A stretch of DNA of 42,920 nt. It comes from a virus. The DNA lies in the IMG/VR virus record IMGVR_UViG_3300045988_008560, positions 1 to 42,920 of that record; one strand, written 5' to 3'. The notes beneath the pieces were generated by a model. The model worked only from the letters and a program-made list of their open reading frames with translations. It made no database searches and was not told the DNA's origin. The position numbers were made by a program, and so were the translations under genes. Below are positions 1 to 42,920 of this stretch, one piece after another. Positions within the stretch are counted from its first letter, which is position 1. Every line of letters starts with the position of its first letter.

Positions 1-99
1 ATTTTTTTTGCGATACTATAAAGGTTTACTCTCTCGCTCGCCCTCGTCCCATGCAAGCTCATCCAAGCTGACGTGGTAATGATTCGCTATCAGCTTTAA
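1..99. repeat. 99-bp terminal direct repeat, identical to 42822..42920
   Basis: attttttttgcgatactataaagg...gattcgctatcagctttaa read at both ends; consistent with k-mer overlap of a circular assembly or true terminal redundancy. Confidence 0.9.
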
Positions 100-246
100 C
101 TGGCTGAGAGCCGGTTCATTTTCCCCGGTTTCGTACTTCCGCAGCGTATCATGTCCAATTCCGATCAACTCCGCTTTCACTCTCATACTTTTAGCAGGCC
201 GCTCAGATTCTCTCAATTTGCGCAGCCGCTCCGGGAATGTACTCAT
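16..246 (-). CDS. XRE/Cro-C1 family HTH transcriptional regulator
   Basis: ORF 16..303 trimmed to ATG 246 preceded by GAGGTG; MSTFPERLRKLRE...TLRKYETGENEPALSQLKLIANHYHVSLDEL is a classic XRE HTH. Confidence 0.85.
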   Translation of the reverse strand: MSTFPERLRKLRESERPAKSMRVKAELIGIGHDTLRKYETGENEPALSQLKLIANHYHVSLDELAWDEGERESKPL

Positions 247-259
247 GCTATCACCTCGG

Positions 260-457
260 TCATACGCACTCCCCAATCTTCCGCAGCAATGCCACCAGGT
301 CATAAAAACAATGCGGGTCTAACCCGGTCTCTTTCTTGATGCGATCAAACCTGTAGCCCGCCGTATTGCGGTGCATATAGACCTGCCGTGCAGCCTGCTC
401 CAGGTTCATGTTGTTTTCCGCATATGCCCTTAGCAGGGCTTTGTCATCGTTTGTCAT
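260..457 (-). CDS. PucR/CdaR-type HTH protein
   Basis: LEQAARQVYMHRNTAGYRFDRIKKETGLDP matches PucR C-terminal HTH pattern; ATG 457 follows GGAGGAGG. Confidence 0.7.
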   Translation of the reverse strand: MTNDDKALLRAYAENNMNLEQAARQVYMHRNTAGYRFDRIKKETGLDPHCFYDLVALLRKIGECV

Positions 458-3397: not shown

Positions 3398-3664
3398 TCA
3401 CGGCTTGCCCTCCCACGGGGTCTCAAGCCATTTTTTAATTTCATGCCAATCTTCTGGCATCGTCGAAACACCAGAGAGGTTTTTCACGATGATATCCATC
3501 CGGAAATTGCACAGCACCCCGGCCAGCTCGTTGTCCGTCATGCTCCGGATCCGGTCGGCAATGGTAACGGGCCACGTGCGATACGGGCACTTTTCGATTG
3601 CGGCGCAGTTTTCAAAGTCATAGCCTATCTGCATGGGGCAGTTTTCACCGGTGCACTTTTTCAT
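3398..3664 (-). CDS. hypothetical Cys-containing early protein
   Basis: 88-aa ORF, 4-nt overlap with upstream gene. Confidence 0.75.
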   Translation of the reverse strand: MKKCTGENCPMQIGYDFENCAAIEKCPYRTWPVTIADRIRSMTDNELAGVLCNFRMDIIVKNLSGVSTMPEDWHEIKKWLETPWEGKP

Positions 3665-3927
3665 AATTTCACCTCCGGTATCCAGCGCCGTTCAAGCAGC
3701 TCCGCGCTTTTCTTGGCCAACAAGGCCGATGCCTCCCGAAGCTGCTCGTTCTGGCTCCGCAGCCACTCAATCTCCCTTTGCAAGGCCAAGATGTAGGTGT
3801 TTTGGTTGGCAATCCGGTCGGCTGCTTCTGTCAGATCATCGCCCAGCGTGATCGGCGTTTCCCACTCATTTGCCTGTGCCCATTCTGCGTGCTCACGCAG
3901 CGAATTTACGAGGTTTGTATCTCTCAT
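3661..3927 (-). CDS. hypothetical coiled-coil protein
   Basis: ILALQREIEWLRSQNEQLREASALLAKKSAELLE heptad-like helix; ATGA coupling. Confidence 0.75.
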   Translation of the reverse strand: MRDTNLVNSLREHAEWAQANEWETPITLGDDLTEAADRIANQNTYILALQREIEWLRSQNEQLREASALLAKKSAELLERRWIPEVKL

Positions 3928-5621
3928 AATTCATCCTTTCCGTATGGGAACAAAAAGCGCCCCATGTCTCCTGGTTTCTCTACCGTGCCGAACCGCCGTT
4001 TGGTCACTGCGATGGGAAACTCTTCAATCTCGCTGGCCCATAGGCACGTTCCGCGTCCGTTCAACTGCTCCCAGATCAGCGGGAAACCACCTATTCCATC
4101 GAACAAACTTGCCATAGTCGCGTCCCGCTCGTAGTTGCCGCACAGCCGTTTCAACAGCCATTTCCACGGCGGCAGGGCGATGGAGTTGCCCAGTGCCTTA
4201 TACCGGGGGCTGTCCGCGTCCTTATGGCGCTTGCCCTTGCTGTCCGTCCACTCGCCCAAGTCGGTCCAGTGGTCAGGGAATCCCTGAAGCCGTTCGCACT
4301 CCAACGGGGTCAGACGGCGAACAACACGGTTCTGCACCGGGTATGTCTCCGAATCCTCCCGGAAATCGCAGTTTGCTTTTGCCTTTAGCGTGTGTGCAAT
4401 ATCCGGTACAGCCGCTCCGCATACCAGCATATCGTTATAGGCATCCTGCCCATTATAGCTCCCTGCGTGTGCTCCGGGCGATAAAGTCCCGGTGGTTTTC
4501 TGGTACGTCAGCGGGATTTGGTTGCCGCCGGTTCCCATACGGGCTTGCAGACTGGGAGCTACCTCACCGCAGTCTCGGATGACATCGCAGGCGTGGCTCA
4601 TATCCAGAATGGCGCACGGCACATGGGCGTTGGCGTTCAGCGTGTGACAGGGCTTCCCAAAATCAGGAATACTCCCATTCTGCTTGCTGGTGATCTGCGT
4701 AGTGTCAAACGCCATGACCGCTGGTTGGTGCCAATGCTCCTGTGCTCTCAGCGTCCCGGAAACATCATGGCTCACGCCCATCATGCTACCGCCCTGATTG
4801 TTCAGGCACAGCACCGATTCCTGATTCTGGCCGCTGTTTTCTCCGGCTGGCAGCGTTGGCATCACACCGGCTTCGCTGTATACCCGCTTGCTCTGGCAAT
4901 CCCATGGGGTCAAGCAGTTTTGAAAAATCGTCTGGTCATTGCCGGTGCCAAGCGTACCGCTTTTCTCCGTCTGGACTAAGGCTCCTTTTCCTCCTCCGTC
5001 ACAGCCCCCCCTGATTCGGACTGCGCAAGCAGCACCGCTTTCAGCACCGGCGGAAGGTCTTTCCCCCTCCGCTCCGCTCTCCGCAGGATACCCTGACACG
5101 CTTTGCTGCTCAAACAATATTTCCCATGCGGTGTCGCCTCCAAAATCTGCGACAAGCGCGATTCTACGGCGACGTTGGGGGACTCCCCAGTGTTGCGCAT
5201 CGAGCACTCGCCACGCAACGCTCCATCGTCCTCCCATTTCATCGTGGTATCCCCCCCAGGTGTTCCAACCTTTTTCAGGCACTTCAATATCGGGGGCTTC
5301 CGGCTCTGCGACCCGGATGGCTTCTTCGAGGACGGCCGCAAAGTCTTTTCCTCCGTTGCTTGAGAAGGCTCCGGGAACATTTTCCCAGACCATATACCGA
5401 GGTCGCAGAAACTCACCTGTTCTCCCGCTTGCCATGTCATGTTCTCTCATCTCCTTCACGACCCTGATCTGTTCCATGTATAGGCCGGAGCGCGCCCCGG
5501 CCAGCCCTGTCCGCTTTCCGGCAATAGAAAGGTCCTGACACGGACTGCCGCCGATCACCACATCCACAACGGGGGCCTCCGCTCCATTGATCTTCGTTAT
5601 GTCACCAAGATGGAGCATCAT
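3924..5621 (-). CDS. DNA (cytosine-5) methyltransferase with circularly permuted motif order (III-X then I-II)
   Basis: From SD-linked ATGATG (5621/5618): LGDITK (III), GGSPCQDLS (IV), ENVPG (VI), QRRRR (VIII), long TRD, RRLTPLECERLQGFP (IX), RYKALGNSIALP (X), then MASLFDGIGGFP (I) and WASEIEEFP (II) in the last 63 aa. Confidence 0.85.
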   Translation of the reverse strand: MMLHLGDITKINGAEAPVVDVVIGGSPCQDLSIAGKRTGLAGARSGLYMEQIRVVKEMREHDMASGRTGEFLRPRYMVWENVPGAFSSNGGKDFAAVLEEAIRVAEPEAPDIEVPEKGWNTWGGYHDEMGGRWSVAWRVLDAQHWGVPQRRRRIALVADFGGDTAWEILFEQQSVSGYPAESGAEGERPSAGAESGAACAVRIRGGCDGGGKGALVQTEKSGTLGTGNDQTIFQNCLTPWDCQSKRVYSEAGVMPTLPAGENSGQNQESVLCLNNQGGSMMGVSHDVSGTLRAQEHWHQPAVMAFDTTQITSKQNGSIPDFGKPCHTLNANAHVPCAILDMSHACDVIRDCGEVAPSLQARMGTGGNQIPLTYQKTTGTLSPGAHAGSYNGQDAYNDMLVCGAAVPDIAHTLKAKANCDFREDSETYPVQNRVVRRLTPLECERLQGFPDHWTDLGEWTDSKGKRHKDADSPRYKALGNSIALPPWKWLLKRLCGNYERDATMASLFDGIGGFPLIWEQLNGRGTCLWASEIEEFPIAVTKRRFGTVEKPGDMGRFLFPYGKDEL

Positions 5622-33189: not shown

Positions 33190-33589
33190 GCTTCACCGCC
33201 TTTTCTGCTACACGCACCCACTTCTCCATGTTCTGCGCCTTGGATGCTTCAAACCAATGGGAGCAAGTCCCGGTTCTGTGGAAAATCAAATTCTTTTCCG
33301 GCACCGCCGGAACCTTCGTAACGCCTTTCCGCGCATAAGAGCTTCCGGTCAGCGGGTCAACGTACAGTTTGCCGTAGTACAAATATCTGGCATACGGACC
33401 TGGATAAACAACCGTGTTTCCCGTTACCCTTGTACGCGTTCTAAGAGAGCCTGTGAGCATAGGCACGAACGGAGCGGTATCTTTTGCGACCTGCACCGCC
33501 AGAACGTGTTCTGCGCGATTACAGCCCTTGGAAACGGCCTCTTTTACAGCGTCCATGCCGTCCGTCTGAACGGAAAATTTCAACGCCAT
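33179..33589 (-). CDS. head-tail joining (minor capsid family) protein
   Basis: Trimmed to MALKFSVQTDGMDAVKEAV...; its 5' 219 nt is duplicated at 42175..42393. Confidence 0.6.
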   Translation of the reverse strand: MALKFSVQTDGMDAVKEAVSKGCNRAEHVLAVQVAKDTAPFVPMLTGSLRTRTRVTGNTVVYPGPYARYLYYGKLYVDPLTGSSYARKGVTKVPAVPEKNLIFHRTGTCSHWFEASKAQNMEKWVRVAEKAVKRDL

Positions 33590-33631
33590 ATTACACGCAT
33601 CCGACCTGCCAGTGCTGCATATCAACGCTGC
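33371..33631. repeat. 261-bp segment duplicated (about 94% identity) at 42175..42435
   Basis: Hand alignment, no indels, 15 substitutions counted; spans the junction of genes 33591..34040 and 33179..33589. Confidence 0.85.
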
Positions 33632-38530: not shown

Positions 38531-39961
38531 TTACTCGACCTCCGTTTCTTCCTCGGTCACCATGTCCTGCATCTTTGGTAGCGATGCCTTTGCGGTGGCT
38601 TCGTCCTCATTCATGTATTTTGCCCGGAATTCCCAAGCGTTCATGATCCCTGCGTTGAGCATTTGCAGGTCACGGGCAAATTCGCTCTGCTTGTCCTCAA
38701 TGATGGAATCATCAAAATCAATGCTGATTTCAACATTTTCATCAAGCCCTGCGCCCAACGCCTTATTACCAAGTCGCAGAAGGACCCTGCAAAGCTCAAC
38801 CAGAGCACTTTCCAAAATGACTTCATGCTTTTTGATCGTGCGGAACATGGTACTATTCTCGCTGATTACCTGCGTGGCTGTTGCCACGCTGCCGCCATTA
38901 AACCGATAATAGGTTTCGCCAAACCCGCATTTGCTGGAAAGCATATTAAGATGGTCTTGCAGGCCGACATTCAGCGCAGCCGTCCTCAGCTCCGGCGCAA
39001 CGGTCTCAACAACGCTCCCCTGCTGTGTATCTTCCGGGAGAAGGTAAAACCGCCTGTCATTGTCATCCAGTGTCGGTTCACCGTCTTCATACTTTGTCGC
39101 TGACATTTTGACCATCATCATCATGGGGCCGTTTTCAAACTCATTGACGTAGCAATCATACGCAGTATCAACGCCGCGAAGGACATCAATGGAATTTGCA
39201 AAAACGGAAATGCCAACAGGCAGAAGATAATTGAAGTTGTTTGCAATGTTCGGCTTGTCAATTACAAACTGCCGTTTATTGCTTCCGGTATATACCACAG
39301 GGGGGATGCGCTCAAACCCGGGAACATTCTTCAAATCTTCATCGGACAACTGTTCGTTCTGGTATCGGTAAATTCGGTTTTCGATTACATACGTCCCATC
39401 ATTCGCTCTGCGGTGGATCTGAAAATACACATAATCTTTTCCGCCTCGCGTAACCCTGGAAGTAAAAGCGCAATCATAAATAAAGCCGTTCTGCCATGCA
39501 AGTGGGTAAATGTCATGCATCGTGGCATAATCAATCGCAATGCTGGACGCGTCACCGGGGATGATCTCTCCGGAATCCGTCACGCCCTGCCCCGTCACGC
39601 GGGGTATATATGCCACCGTCCCCAGTGCGGATTTCATCTCCTGCATCTCATTAGCTTTAACGGTGAAATTGTTCTCCGCCAAAACGCGATCAATGAAATC
39701 CTGTTCTTTTTTGCCCTCAAGCGTGATTTTGACTTTTTCGTTCATGAGCAGGTTCGCCCAGTCCTCGCAGACCTTTTTCCCCATACTAAGCGTTGCTCTA
39801 TTGTGTTTAGTCCACTTGTGGCCGTTATATCTGCGGTACTGGTGGAAGCCCTTCACTTTACCAACGTACCATGATTCCCACAGATCAACTTGCCCATAAA
39901 ACTCTTCAGAGATCGTTGTATAGCCAAGCTCTTTTAACTTTTGGATAACTGCACTGCTCAT
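38531..39961 (-). CDS. portal protein (SPP1 gp6 family)
   Basis: 476 aa after terL; N-terminal EEFYGQVDLWESWYVGKVKGFHQYRRYNG pattern of SPP1-type portals. Confidence 0.85.
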   Translation of the reverse strand: MSSAVIQKLKELGYTTISEEFYGQVDLWESWYVGKVKGFHQYRRYNGHKWTKHNRATLSMGKKVCEDWANLLMNEKVKITLEGKKEQDFIDRVLAENNFTVKANEMQEMKSALGTVAYIPRVTGQGVTDSGEIIPGDASSIAIDYATMHDIYPLAWQNGFIYDCAFTSRVTRGGKDYVYFQIHRRANDGTYVIENRIYRYQNEQLSDEDLKNVPGFERIPPVVYTGSNKRQFVIDKPNIANNFNYLLPVGISVFANSIDVLRGVDTAYDCYVNEFENGPMMMMVKMSATKYEDGEPTLDDNDRRFYLLPEDTQQGSVVETVAPELRTAALNVGLQDHLNMLSSKCGFGETYYRFNGGSVATATQVISENSTMFRTIKKHEVILESALVELCRVLLRLGNKALGAGLDENVEISIDFDDSIIEDKQSEFARDLQMLNAGIMNAWEFRAKYMNEDEATAKASLPKMQDMVTEEETEVE

Positions 39962-41196
39962 GCAATAACTCCCATTCTGCGGCTGACAGGCTCAAGCGCA
40001 TACCGAGTCGCGTCAATCAGGTGGTTGTTCGCGTCTGGGTATCCGCTGATAATGTCACCGTCTTTGTTTCGTTCGTATTCGTATCCAACAAATTCATCGT
40101 AAGCGTGCGGTGTGCGTCGCCTATCAATAACAATCGTTCTCCGCTGCAAAAACTTCATGCCATATTCCACAGAGCCGGGGCCTTTGACCGCTTCATACGC
40201 AGGTAGCCCCATTGCGCGGAGATCAGCAACGCTCTTTGGCTCGGCGCTGTCGCAGATCGTTCTAATGTTGTTATATCCGCGCTGCTTAATCATGGTCGCG
40301 CTTTGCTCGTTGGATAATTTGTTTTGGTAAATCTCGTCCAGCAGATAAATGGTCTCTCGCGCCCGATTATAATGCAGCCGGATAAAAGCAAACGGGTCTG
40401 GGAACCAGCCGAAGTCCACTCCCTGATAGATGCGGTCGAAACTCTTGACTTCTTCATCGGTAATCTCCCGCAGTTCCAGCTTGTCAAACACATTTCCGCC
40501 GGTCCCTACCGGTATACCGAGATATTCGTGCTGATATGCTCGCTCGTCCGTCTCTTTCAGGTGTTCCGCTTCTGCAAGGAACTGTTCTCCCAACCACTCA
40601 GGCGGTGCTTGCAGATATGTTGATTTGTGGCACAGCCGGTCAGCGCGTTCTTCTAAGCTGTCCTTGTTCGCCCAGTTATCGCGCGAGATCGGCGGGTTAT
40701 AACTCTCGAAGTTCCAGAACACCGATCCGCCACGCATGGTGGACTGTAAAATGGTTCGGATTTCCGCGCGACCGGCAAACTGGTCTTTCTCTTCAAAGTG
40801 CGTCACGGCAATGTAGCCAAACGGCACCTTGATAGACTTGATCTTCATCGGATCATCAGCGCCGCGAAACATGATCTTCTGGCCTGTCGGCTTATAGATC
40901 AGCTCCATCGGGGATAGTTTCGCTTCCCAATACGCCGCCATGCCCAGCTCGCCGATTGCCCAGATATACTGAGCATACACGCTATCGCGGATCGTGTTTG
41001 CTACCTTGCGCAGCACAAGCGCGTGCGTTCCCGGATTGCCAACCAGCAGAAGCGGAACGATAATTGATACTGTGGAGGATTTCAGCGAGCCGCGCCCGCC
41101 GCTAAAATCATAGTGCGTGTGACCATGATGAAAAATGTCACGCGCCACGCTGTAAAATGCAGGGCCGATTTTATCCGACAGGTGGATTTCAGACAT
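39958..41196 (-). CDS. terL: terminase large subunit (PBSX-type)
   Basis: Trimmed to MSEIHLSD; Walker A-like FSGGRGSLKSS; C-terminal nuclease region. Confidence 0.9.
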   Translation of the reverse strand: MSEIHLSDKIGPAFYSVARDIFHHGHTHYDFSGGRGSLKSSTVSIIVPLLLVGNPGTHALVLRKVANTIRDSVYAQYIWAIGELGMAAYWEAKLSPMELIYKPTGQKIMFRGADDPMKIKSIKVPFGYIAVTHFEEKDQFAGRAEIRTILQSTMRGGSVFWNFESYNPPISRDNWANKDSLEERADRLCHKSTYLQAPPEWLGEQFLAEAEHLKETDERAYQHEYLGIPVGTGGNVFDKLELREITDEEVKSFDRIYQGVDFGWFPDPFAFIRLHYNRARETIYLLDEIYQNKLSNEQSATMIKQRGYNNIRTICDSAEPKSVADLRAMGLPAYEAVKGPGSVEYGMKFLQRRTIVIDRRRTPHAYDEFVGYEYERNKDGDIISGYPDANNHLIDATRYALEPVSRRMGVIA

Positions 41197-41602
41197 CAAT
41201 GACCACCTTGACCGCATCTGTAGTCAATTTTGTTTCGTTGACTTCACGCCATCCAAAGTTGCATCCAAGACTGAATTTCGCGCCGTTTGCCCCGTCCTTA
41301 TCGTACAGACGGGTTTCAGCATATTCCTCGCACCGGGACTTCGCGCGCGTAACCGTGTCCGCGAACTCTGGCCGCGCCTGATAATCGATCAGCGCTTGTC
41401 TGCCCGTAAACCCCAACGCCAACGCAAGCCCCGTTATCGTGGGCGGCTTCTGCCCTATCAGAATGACGTTGCCGTATTTATCCATCAGCGGCTGTCCATC
41501 GTCGCCAATAATCGGTTCCCCTTTGCAGCTCTCAAAATAAGCGTCAATGGCTTTTTGCATTTTCTTTACGCTTTTCCATTTCCTTGGCGCTCCGCCAGCC
41601 AT
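41189..41602 (-). CDS. terS: terminase small subunit
   Basis: PPTITGLALALGFTGRQALIDY...AKSRCEEYAE...GAKFSLGCNFGW typical small-terminase HTH; SD AAGGGAG. Confidence 0.85.
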   Translation of the reverse strand: MAGGAPRKWKSVKKMQKAIDAYFESCKGEPIIGDDGQPLMDKYGNVILIGQKPPTITGLALALGFTGRQALIDYQARPEFADTVTRAKSRCEEYAETRLYDKDGANGAKFSLGCNFGWREVNETKLTTDAVKVVIDV

Positions 41603-41766
41603 ACGCTCACTCCCTTTCGCCTTACTCGCTTAATGTCAAAATCGGGAATATGCAACCGTGCCTTATCCATCAATCTTTCACAAGCCGTTGACTTCTCCGA
41701 TTGTCGTAAAAACTTTTTTACGCTTGAAGCAGTCACAACAAAAGACGCGTTTCCCCCTTTTGCCAT
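41566..41766 (-). CDS. possible small basic protein upstream of terS
   Basis: 66-aa ORF with GGGGGGAG only 2 nt before the ATG and a 37-nt overlap with terS; weak. Confidence 0.3.
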   Translation of the reverse strand: MAKGGNASFVVTASSVKKFLRQSEKSTACERLMDKARLHIPDFDIKRVRRKGVSVWLAERQGNGKA

Positions 41767-42160
41767 AACTCCCCCCTGTTTTGCTACCGGCCCCCACCCC
41801 TTGGCCTTACATAGCAGACTTTACCCGCCCCGAGGGGCTACAACGCCGCCCACATTGGGCGTTATTCTCTCCATTTGAGTTGCTTACACAATTAGCCGTA
41901 CAGAACCGGGCAAGCATACTACCCTACACAACGGCCTTGCCCAAGGGCAGCCGTTACCTCACCACTTCCGCATACCTTTCGATGAACACGCCTCGGAGTT
42001 CGCTCTGCATGGTTCTGTACGCGCTAACCACGGAACTTTTCAGCCCTGCGCCGGTATGTCGGTCGCATCCGTTTCTTTTACACAAGCCGGTGCCAGCCAA
42101 ATAAAATTATTCAACCCGCCGCTTTCATACAGCGCACAGGCAAGCCCCTTGTAGCGGTCT
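41767..42160 (-). ncRNA. candidate large structured RNA (family unknown)
   Basis: No ORF of 60 codons or more on the coding strand, stops in all frames, G-rich on minus strand, many GNRA-like motifs, 11-bp long-range helix 41897..41907 / 42011..42021 and several local hairpins. Confidence 0.4.
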
Positions 42161-42393
42161 TACCCTTCCACGGTGCCGCAATACAGATATCTGGCATACG
42201 GCTCTGGATAAACAACCGTGTTTCCCGTTACCCTTGTGTGCGTTCTAAGAGAGCCTGTGAGCATAGGTACAAACGGAGCGGTATCTTTTGCGACCTGCAC
42301 CGCCAGAACGTGTTCTGCGCGATCACAGCCCTTGGAAACAGCCTCTTTTACAGCGTCCATGCCGTCCGTCTGAACGGAAAATTTCAACGCCAT
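42160..42393 (-). pseudogene. truncated, diverged second copy of the head-tail joining gene 33179..33589
   Basis: MALKFSVQTDGMDAVKEAVSKGCDRAEHVLAVQVAKDTAPFVPMLTGSLRTHTRVTGNTVVYPEPYARYLYCGTVEG then stop; keeps a GGAGGTG SD. Confidence 0.7.
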
Positions 42394-42435
42394 GTCACAC
42401 ACCTCCGACCTGCCAGTGCTGCATATCAACGCTGC
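42175..42435. repeat. second copy of the 261-bp duplication (see 33371..33631)
   Basis: Same orientation as copy 1; includes the last 12 codons of the upstream gene homologue (SVDMQHWQVGGV stop). Confidence 0.85.
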
Positions 42436-42617
42436 GGTTTTGGAGACCGCCTCGCCAGCCTTGGAACATTCGCCCCTATGTTTGTCTGTCTTTCCAGACT
42501 GTCACCGCTGCGTGTCGGCTGCCTGCGGTTGGCCCCCATAGGTACACGTTTCTGTTGCCCTGCTGCGCCCATCTCCGGGCAACCCGTTTGTGATTGTACT
42601 TCTCACGGCGCTGGATG

Positions 42618-42689
42618 TGGTGCAGACGGCAGGACTTGAACCTGCGCATACCTCCTGGCGCGGTGCTCTGCCAACTGAGCTACGTCTGC
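42618..42689 (-). tRNA. tRNA-like element with non-canonical, shortened anticodon region (possible pseudo-tRNA)
   Basis: GCAGACG-TA-GCTC-AGTTGGCA-GAGC-A-[CCGCGCCAGGAGGTATGC]-GCAGG-TTCAAGT-CCTGC-CGTCTGC-A-CCA; 72 nt including CCA, 4 nt short of a standard tRNA. Confidence 0.5.
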
Positions 42690-42821
42690 ATATCCCCGGC
42701 ATCCGCCGGGGTCAGGAGGAAAGAAAGGATGGATGGAAAGAATGAGGATACGGATATAACCCCGCACCCTCATTCTGACACATATTTTTCTACGCTTGCC
42801 CCGAATTGGGGGCAAAGGCCA

Positions 42822-42920
42822 ATTTTTTTTGCGATACTATAAAGGTTTACTCTCTCGCTCGCCCTCGTCCCATGCAAGCTCATCCAAGCTGACGTGGTAA
42901 TGATTCGCTATCAGCTTTAA
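42822..42920. repeat. 99-bp terminal direct repeat, identical to 1..99
   Basis: Read directly. Confidence 0.9.

Follow-up and report, generated by a model that had tools for sequence, protein, structure and literature searches.

Large structured RNAs of unknown function are rare in bacteria and phages, and OLE, GOLLD, ROOL and raiA have each opened new biology, of which RNA-only nanocages are the latest case. ROOL has a length of about 580 nt. The small stable RNAs of the T4 tRNA cluster and MALAT1/mascRNA have ends that are set by tRNA-like structures, through RNase P and 3' maturation enzymes. ROOL and GOLLD are both phage RNAs found near tRNA islands, and the linker of GOLLD can hold tRNAs (PMC12286853). 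ROOL occurs in phages and prophages of Firmicutes; it measures several hundred nucleotides, contains numerous helices and loop-loop contacts that covary and has no ORF, and neither a protein partner nor a function is known for it (PMC12286853). The expression of GOLLD rises during lysis, and the covarying kissing loops of ROOL and GOLLD proved to be bridges between the subunits of RNA nanocages (PMC12286853). Concerning shorter RNAs, the csRNAs predicted from IMG/VR by Fremin et al. 2023 include motifs that resemble tRNAs and others that lie upstream of terminase genes, and the four highlighted ones are 64-86 nt long (PMC10690425).

The locus compared with these systems lies on the minus strand of the window, that is, the whole 42,920-nt stretch of viral DNA analysed here. 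A sequence-only reading had proposed a large structured RNA beside a tRNA-like element, and the proposal is supported: homologues exist, the minus-strand helices covary and the link to tRNAs recurs in about 160 loci. The block represents a real and well-delimited class of large structured RNA of human-gut phages, which is apparently undescribed. As in the large ornate phage ncRNAs, it is phage-encoded and adjacent to tRNA genes, exceeds 300 nt, combines multiple covarying helices with loop contacts (about 10 helices and a kissing loop) and contains no conserved ORF. ROOL and GOLLD are the closest known systems by genomic niche and character; the likeness is judged to be one of kind, not of family. 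The element resembles ROOL as a phage RNA beside tRNAs with many covarying helices, a covarying loop-loop contact and no ORF, but it is shorter (about 325-410 nt), has another helix layout, is joined to the 3' CCA of a tRNA without an intervening base and in most cases lies immediately before terS. It resembles GOLLD in lying within tRNA arrays, in having one universal and one variable part and in having tRNAs embedded beside or inside it; however, it is less than half as large, and its 5' part is conserved and its 3' part optional, whereas GOLLD is reversed (conserved 3' half). Like the tRNA-punctuated RNAs it may have its ends set by flanking tRNAs, an analogy suggested by the CCA junction, but the T4 and MALAT1 RNAs are much smaller or eukaryotic. 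With the csRNAs it shares the source collection (IMG/VR) and the gut-phage setting, but it is longer than the four highlighted examples.

Extent, distribution and neighbours of the element

The features of the locus are the following, in minus-strand order:

42621..42689, minus strand: tRNA-like gene with an encoded CCA and a shortened anticodon arm (Rfam tRNA model, 52.1 bits)
41778..42190, minus strand: whole structured RNA element, long form of about 410 nt, delimited by conservation edges, identity of relatives and covarying helices
41770-41776, minus strand: ribosome-binding site, which opens directly after the RNA and precedes the 66-aa ORF
41566-41766, minus strand: 66-aa ORF, beginning directly after the RNA, with terS and then terL downstream
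41189-41602, minus strand: terS (GP3_package)
39958-41217, minus strand: terL (Terminase_3)

The full order on this strand is the tRNA-like gene, a spacer, an 89-aa ORF, the RNA block, the 66-aa ORF, terS, terL and the portal gene. The tRNA-like gene at 42621-42689 was not called by ARAGORN. The window is a circular assembly, in which bases 1-99 recur at 42822-42920 (99-nt terminal overlap). What lies upstream of the tRNA is therefore the set of minus-strand early genes from the window start, and the nearest of them is that of an HTH regulator. Scanning of minus strand 41603-42920, which covers the RNA and its upstream flank, revealed no terminator and no sigma-70-like promoter, and the sole promoter-like match of the minus strand is at 41535-41508, inside terS. 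No reverse transcriptase, IscB or intron ORF was found near the element. The claim that the rest of the genome has almost no intergenic space was overstated, since further gaps of 250-380 nt remain after a crude tiling with ORFs.

The RNA is read in the direction of falling coordinates, from 42190 to 41778. In an alignment of 99 distinct 800-nt flanks, relatives have an identity of 0.6-1.0 across approximately 41777-42186 and of 0.07-0.38 on either side of it. The block, first placed at 41767-42160, is indeed a discrete unit, but its true 5' edge is about 30 nt past that end, near 42190. The absence of a minus-strand ORF of at least 60 codons in 41767-42160 was confirmed (the largest are of 48, 39 and 36 aa), and the G-richness noticed on this strand holds for the family core, which is 33% G and 23% C. 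The universal part of the element is about 325 nt, and the form with a 3' domain, as in the window, about 410 nt.

We used a core 20-mer, taken from a perfectly conserved stretch within the joiner between P4 and P5, to find relatives; it is present in at least 120 IMG/VR gut-phage contigs. A degenerate pattern added 42 further new IMG/VR loci, which form a divergent clade and are found mostly in phages of 55-120 kb, and in total more than 160 viral contigs carry the element. The pairwise identity of more than 100 relatives to the window copy is 54-95%. In a blastn search against GenBank phages, two faecal phage scaffolds match over the block only (73-75% identical), and a scan of one genome per prokaryotic species revealed the element in three MAGs only (Oscillospiraceae, Oscillibacter and Eubacteriales). 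A fourth prokaryotic match, in a Planctomycetia MAG (L123), is a chance 21-nt match and was rejected. Its carriers are phages that infect Oscillospiraceae and related gut Clostridia. The sequence-only reading had allowed for a region absent or unconserved in relatives and free of compensatory substitutions; both homologues and compensations were found.

The 5' start of the RNA coincides exactly with the end of a canonical T-arm, acceptor strand and CCA in 86 of 117 loci, and about 29 more contain at the same spot a tRNA-shaped module of about 100 nt with an ACCA end; a tRNA or tRNA-like CCA end thereby abuts the RNA in about 115 of the 117. The identity of the preceding tRNA varies (Trp, Gly, Met, Ser, Thr, Ile, Asn, Leu, Phe and Lys) and the junction stays CCA. 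On the other side it is bounded either by another tRNA or by its own 3' domain, which then lies shortly upstream of terS/terL: 80 loci have the 3' domain, 28 an immediate downstream tRNA, and none has both. In those 28 loci the tRNA begins right after helix P5, and the core of about 325 nt is flanked by tRNAs on both sides, without an adjacent protein gene. Where the 3' domain is present, it ends 5-30 nt ahead of a ribosome-binding site and start codon. Most loci have terS and terL, or a methylase and then terS and terL, directly after the element; the downstream genes comprise five terS families and three terL families, or a DNA methylase in between. One subtype is followed instead by tRNAs, HU and a NifS-like gene. 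The core is near-invariant whatever gene follows.

Helices and loop-loop pairing

The structural features, listed from the 5' end of the RNA, are as follows:

42142..42190, minus strand: 5' variable region (P1 area), from alignments; three sequence versions in the family
42114..42141, minus strand: P2 hairpin, 10 bp with one bulge; 98.5% paired
42124-42130, minus strand: loop L2 of P2, 7 nt (GUAUGAA)
42085..42098, minus strand: P3 hairpin GGCUG-GCAC-CGGCU; 96.9% paired, 2 pairs changed on both sides
42047..42067, minus strand: P4 hairpin UGCG-A-CCG / CGG-CGCA; near-invariant stem, six of seven pairs without any variation
42054-42059, minus strand: loop L4 of P4, 6 nt (ACAUAC); pairs with L2 as a kissing loop
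42028..42046, minus strand: joiner GGGCUGAAAAGUUCCGUGG; near-invariant, 16 of 19 positions identical in all 34 aligned sequences
42007..42032, minus strand: P5, 5' strand, from own-partner duplex energies in 5 sequence families
41956..42005, minus strand: apical multiloop of P5, from the alignment
41930..41955, minus strand: P6, bulged hairpin of 6 + 4 bp; 99.3% paired in 44 distinct sequences
41924-41929, minus strand: conserved GUGUAG, which follows P6
41887..41915, minus strand: P5, 3' strand, complementary to the 5' strand; a sixth version in a divergent MAG copy (L126)
41778..41886, minus strand: 3' domain; 95.6% paired, against 31-54% when slid
41847-41861, minus strand: P7, helix of the 3' domain
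41827-41838, minus strand: P8, helix of the 3' domain
41811-41816 with 41782-41787, minus strand: P9, helix of the 3' domain
41803-41806 with 41789-41792, minus strand: P10, bearing the G-rich loop AAGGGGUGGG

Based on these features, the predicted fold is compact and consists of a near-invariant 5' core in which the loops of P2 and P4 are paired, the long helix P5 capped by a conserved multiloop and P6, and, in loci with a protein gene downstream, a 3' domain of four helices. Local hairpins are plausible in the P1 area, whose versions act as only two or three haplotypes. The core helices P2, P3 and P4 are 98.9% paired, compared with 29-46% when the partners are slid. One base pair of P2 is seen in five standard types (GC, GU, UA, CG and AU), and in the divergent clade the whole P2 stem is rewritten with its complementarity kept. 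Much of the 5' core is invariant, so that several of the pairs drawn there, in P4 and the joiner, are putative. A pairing of the 5' end with the GUGGYGUGGU stretch, suggested by RNAalifold, has one-sided changes only and crosses P5; it was left out.

The loop-loop pairing of L2 and L4 was singled out as the most telling structural result. The two loops are complementary and about 80 nt apart. Among the first 123 instances, 60 have GUAUG:CAUAC and 63 have GUACG:CGUAC, with no C:A combination, and each of the two states occurs in several P5 subtypes and with several 5' variants. The MAG copy L126 and the 42 loci of the divergent clade have GUGCA:UGCAC, which adds three more compensated positions, and one locus has GCGCG:UGCGC. 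The pairing is kept through four sequence states, with no discordant case among about 167 sequences; two additional IMG/VR scans for more kissing-loop states found none. This covariation is compatible alike with intramolecular and intermolecular pairing. The sequence-only reading had paired one arm of P4 with P3 (42048..42054 with 42087..42093), which did not hold: the arms sit in separate hairpins, and the G-T wobble of the plus strand becomes C-A on the transcribed strand.

P5 is a helix of 20-25 bp, which is found in five mutually incompatible, self-complementary sequence versions, in addition to the sixth of L126. Across the five families, the duplex energy with the own partner is -27 to -38 kcal/mol versus -12 to -24 with swapped partners, and the shuffle z-scores are -2.9 to -5.0. 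The 11 bp that had been paired by hand between 41897..41907 and 42011..42021 are real and belong to this covarying helix. Its multiloop contains a small hairpin (41996-42005; 79.5% paired, one compensatory pair), a conserved CCGAGGC (41990-41996), a subtype-specific insert and the G/U-rich GGAAGUGGUGAGGU. The bulged hairpin proposed at 41930..41955 likewise proved genuine and corresponds to P6. Four of its pairs are changed on both sides (UA/AU 25:19, GC/AU 25:19, UA/CG 35:9 and GC/AU 30:10), and sliding the partner by 1-3 columns lowers the paired fraction to 24-58%.

Concerning the 3' domain, other subtypes have a second sequence version with the same helices. The hairpin first drawn as 41842-41847 with 41858-41863 is in the right place, but its register is off: the comparison supports a pairing of 41847-41851 with 41857-41861 (89.6% paired, 3 compensatory pairs), and the 3' partner first chosen is absent in one subtype. 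No partner was found for the pyrimidine that varies within the G-rich P10 loop.

Alternative readings and proposed role

All counted helices taken together are 96.8% paired when read on the minus strand and 87.4% on the plus strand, 211 cells being G-U (many of the sequences are related and come from one large gut dataset, and cell counts overstate the independent events). Because pairing is better there and these cells are G-U, the RNA is assigned to the minus strand, that of the tRNA and the genes. Single-sequence folding gives z-scores of -0.60 on the minus and -3.08 on the plus strand; as evidence for the strand such scores point to the wrong one, are uninformative for a G-rich RNA and were set aside. 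The case for structure is one of sequence comparison, not of thermodynamics.

Could the block instead be coding DNA or a decayed gene? One candidate is the 107-aa ORF on the plus strand (41781-42104), the other a leftover that would extend the truncated minor-head ORF. The 107-aa ORF covers most of the block, so that the description of the region as ORF-free stands for the minus but not for the plus strand; 63 of 127 unique cores have an antisense frame free of stops, against 19% of shuffles, and a genuine gene fragment adjoins the element. However, the frame is not conserved among relatives: the open antisense frame varies (frames 1, 2 and 0 in 35, 23 and 4 cores, with one core open in two), 64 of the 127 cores have none, and on the RNA strand stops occur in all frames in 122 of 127. 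Subtypes differ in length by numbers of nucleotides that are not divisible by three, the substitutions cluster in pairs that compensate each other and the 107-aa ORF has no Pfam match, while the minor-head duplicate stops at 42174 and no relative has it here. This reading is almost certainly wrong. A role at the level of DNA, as pac/cos or another recognition site of terminase or integrase with incidental hairpins, would suit the position, since pac and cos sites often lie directly upstream of terS, as the element does, and the plus strand folds better than its shuffles (z = -3.08). The element is not specific to one terminase type, though: it precedes five unrelated terS and three terL families and is also found in tRNA arrays distant from terminase genes, which is at odds with the option, already raised in the sequence-only reading, of a simple pac/cos region. 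Its pairing is strand-asymmetric (the 211 G-U cells are A-C on the opposite strand) and the loop-loop covariation has no rationale at the DNA level. The assembly is circular, so that the window ends are uninformative on packaging, and the positions of the element within contigs are arbitrary. Independence of the neighbours, strand asymmetry and loop-loop covariation together make a DNA site extremely unlikely.

That the element is a divergent member of a described class (ROOL, GOLLD, HEARO, RNase P, tmRNA, T-box or group I/II intron) has in its favour the phage-borne context beside tRNAs, which is that of ROOL and GOLLD, and short motifs, GGUAAAGUC and a UGGU before a hairpin, which we take to resemble RNase P or T-box strings. 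Against it, Rfam 15 detected only the tRNA in the whole window at gathering thresholds, and none of its 4227 models matched anything else in 41400-42920 on both strands with permissive filters (E<=10). In 20 homologous loci (E<=5) only tRNAs were found, bar one sub-threshold match, of DUF3800-VIII (36 bits versus a cut-off of 40.2), on the variable hairpin that replaces P7 in a single locus (L024). The models of ROOL (RF03087) and GOLLD (RF01998) have no match in the window or in the 20 loci, nor were those of HEARO/IscB omega-RNA, group I/II introns, RNase P RNA, tmRNA, T-box, 6S and SRP matched. The hint at ROOL and GOLLD was therefore apt for the genomic setting but not for the family, and the earlier remark that no family could be assigned by eye is borne out at E<=10. 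Individual resemblances were also followed up. An RNase P-like reading (ACAGAG.GCAA, AAGGCCAA, GGUAAAGUC) was rejected, as ACAGAG.GCAA proved to belong to P5, whose 3' strand it forms in one subtype, and the RNase P models gave no match. T-box-like pairing of UGGN with the NCCA of the fused tRNA was rejected since, for both UGGN motifs, the discriminator base (A/G) does not covary with the fourth base. A tmRNA or two-piece tmRNA was discarded because neither ARAGORN nor Rfam detected one and because the tRNAs found upstream are complete and have many different identities. Membership in a described class is very unlikely, and a literature search by topic and sequence string (the supplementary sequences of PMC10690425 not covered) revealed no description of the element.

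The reading that we favour, with moderate confidence, is that of an uncatalogued large structured ncRNA, which would be released by tRNA processing, be stable and act in trans in late infection. The RNA would be co-transcribed with the tRNAs, in a transcript running on into terS and terL, and host tRNA maturation would excise it by 3' trimming of the upstream tRNA and by RNase P at the downstream tRNA; we infer both steps from the CCA junction, the flanking tRNAs, the mutual exclusion of 3' domain and downstream tRNA and the lack of a terminator or promoter in the scanned region. The 3' end would come from the downstream tRNA or from the 3' domain, and the latter might have a function for the downstream mRNA, either as well or in place of this one. 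The stable RNA may then accumulate and act in trans in late infection, its near-invariant core, locked by the kissing loop, binding a conserved partner, which could be a host factor or copies of itself. Among the observations counted against this reading, the RNA runs without a terminator into the next ribosome-binding site in 80 loci, including the window, which would suit a cis-acting leader equally well, and the minus-strand folding energy is unremarkable (z = -0.60).

In the main rival reading, the RNA would be a 5' leader that acts in cis on the packaging operon. It would remain attached to the terS/terL mRNA and control the stability of this mRNA once the tRNAs are processed, its translation, or the read-through of terminators in the long late operon; the processive antitermination RNAs put of HK022 and the Bacillus EAR element provide the model. 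The leader is a possible reading, though a clearly less probable one. The terminase genes, alone or after a methylase, lie directly downstream in most loci, there is no minus-strand terminator between the RNA and terS, and an HTH regulator gene is just upstream in the window and in a related locus (L001). The strongest point in favour of a leader is the 3' domain, which stops 5-30 nt short of the next ribosome-binding site and start codon and is found only where a protein gene follows, never where a tRNA follows. Against a leader stand the 28 loci in which a complete core lies between tRNAs with no protein gene adjoining, the near-invariance of the core regardless of the gene that follows, and the exact abutment to the CCA of many tRNAs, which suggests a defined mature 5' end. 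To our knowledge, the known antitermination RNAs are also far smaller and simpler.

A bolder form of the trans-acting reading, drawn by analogy with ROOL and GOLLD and rather doubtful, is that the element represents a third independent class of self-assembling phage RNA. L2:L4 would then be an intermolecular bridge, and a homo-oligomer might hold or shield tRNAs or another host component during late infection and packaging. The element is abundant in human-gut phages, and its compact fold of 325-410 nt suits cryo-EM and chemical probing; owing to the fusion to a tRNA CCA end, its processing logic is unusually explicit. It is also repeatedly associated with the beginning of the packaging operon. 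These properties make it a tractable system for asking why phages pair large RNAs with tRNA arrays, and whether the RNAs have a part in tRNA biology, in counter-defence or in the assembly of virions. In addition, a region that is now blank in hundreds of gut virome contigs receives an annotation.

The rearranged copy of the window

In the window, two further features lie between the tRNA-like gene and the body of the RNA:

42434..42479, minus strand: 5' fragment of a tRNA-Trp(cca), 46 nt, 100% identical to the intact tRNA-Trp of several relatives (L017, L058, L061, L070 and others)
42174..42435, minus strand: inserted 262-nt diverged minor-head duplicate, with 94% nucleotide identity to the original at 33370-33631

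The insert (42174-42435) matches PF11114 and phrog_556, and no relative carries a minor-head duplicate at this position. Its insertion creates the chimeric 89-aa ORF (42160-42429), which matches the N-terminal two thirds of Pfam Minor_capsid_2 and has its stop codon inside the RNA. A second block at 42436..42617, which had been described as similar in character to the first, is not part of the element: it consists of the truncated tRNA-Trp (5' 46 nt) and the spacer between the tRNAs. In relatives the intact tRNA-Trp abuts the RNA; here the insert replaced its 3' half and approximately the first ten nucleotides of the RNA, so that the corresponding start of the 5' variable region is an insertion junction. 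From this comparison, a recombination event is taken to have separated the RNA from its tRNA in the window, leaving the body of the RNA otherwise intact. With its tRNA junction destroyed, the window copy may be processed differently or be decaying.

Sequence divergence and the 3' domain of the RNA

The structured RNA is also found in a divergent form, located within the tRNA arrays of larger phages; in these copies, the sequences of helices P2 and P5 have been replaced, and the kissing loop (L2:L4) also reads differently. The family clearly extends beyond the reach of exact-word scans.

L127-L168, IMG/VR contigs of 55-120 kb: divergent clade
JAZKXO010000120.1 (Eubacteriales MAG), 3448-3731, minus strand: divergent copy L126

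Variation is also seen in the 3' domain (P7-P10). In locus L024 alone, a hairpin with a sub-threshold Rfam match stands in for P7, which suggests that hairpins are swapped as modules between phage RNAs. The loop of P10 is conserved and purine-rich; it reads AAGGGGYGGG, and AGUGGUGGGA where the 3' domain is of its second version. The loop lies 25-40 nt upstream of the start codon of the following gene and looks like a Shine-Dalgarno sequence; the search for a covarying partner gave none. It could also form G-tracts in combination with GGGGCGGG nearby.

L024, 4347-4410, plus strand: match to DUF3800-VIII scoring 36.0 bits (cut-off, 40.2 bits)
Window, 41793-41802, and relatives: conserved P10 loop, 10 nt
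Window, 41781-42104, plus strand, and the equivalent region in relatives: antisense stop-free stretch

On the antisense strand of the core, one frame lacks stops in 50% of cores, compared with 19% of shuffles. This open frame differs between relatives, and antisense openness is therefore probably a by-product of the RNA composition.

Aberrant tRNAs and a tRNA-shaped module

The tRNA-like gene in the window has normal acceptor, D and T arms and an encoded CCA, whereas its anticodon arm and variable loop together comprise 18 nt instead of the expected ~22. Rfam scores it as a tRNA, but ARAGORN calls none at this position. Comparable aberrant tRNAs are seen repeatedly in related loci, and ARAGORN prints a two-base 'anticodon' for them.

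Window, 42621-42689, minus strand: tRNA-like gene (Rfam tRNA, 52 bits)
L003, about 4246-4345, plus strand: conserved tRNA-shaped module, ~100 nt

The tRNA-shaped module is present in ~29 of the loci carrying the RNA (among them L005, L014, L024, L044 and L112); in L042 it lies downstream of the RNA. In it, an acceptor-like stem of 7 bp (GCGGCAU/AUGCCGU) and a 3' end ACCA are combined with a T-arm-like hairpin whose 7-nt loop is non-canonical, and the D and anticodon arms are replaced by two GC-rich hairpins. It has no match in Rfam, and could be either a processing signal or another uncharacterized RNA.

Neighbouring genes and genome ends

Between the tRNAs and the RNA, the window carries a 262-nt copy of part of a minor-head gene, 94% identical to the original; its insertion produced a chimeric 89-aa ORF (42160-42429). 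All relatives lack the copy at this position. Since its identity to the orthologous gene of L044 (94.7%) is on par with that to the window's own original, the copy may derive from a related phage.

Window, 42174-42435: minor-head gene duplicate (copy)
Window, 33370-33631: original of the duplicate (Minor_capsid_2/phrog_556)
Window, 16-303, minus strand: small Xre-type HTH regulator gene
L001, 3752-3970, minus strand: small Xre-type HTH regulator gene
Window, 1-99 and 42822-42920: exact direct terminal repeat, 99 nt

In both the window and L001, which are otherwise dissimilar phages, an Xre-type HTH gene directly precedes the tRNA/RNA unit. Its product could regulate this transcription unit. 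With its terminal repeat, the window represents a genome of 42,821 bp that was assembled as a circle and has an arbitrary start point.
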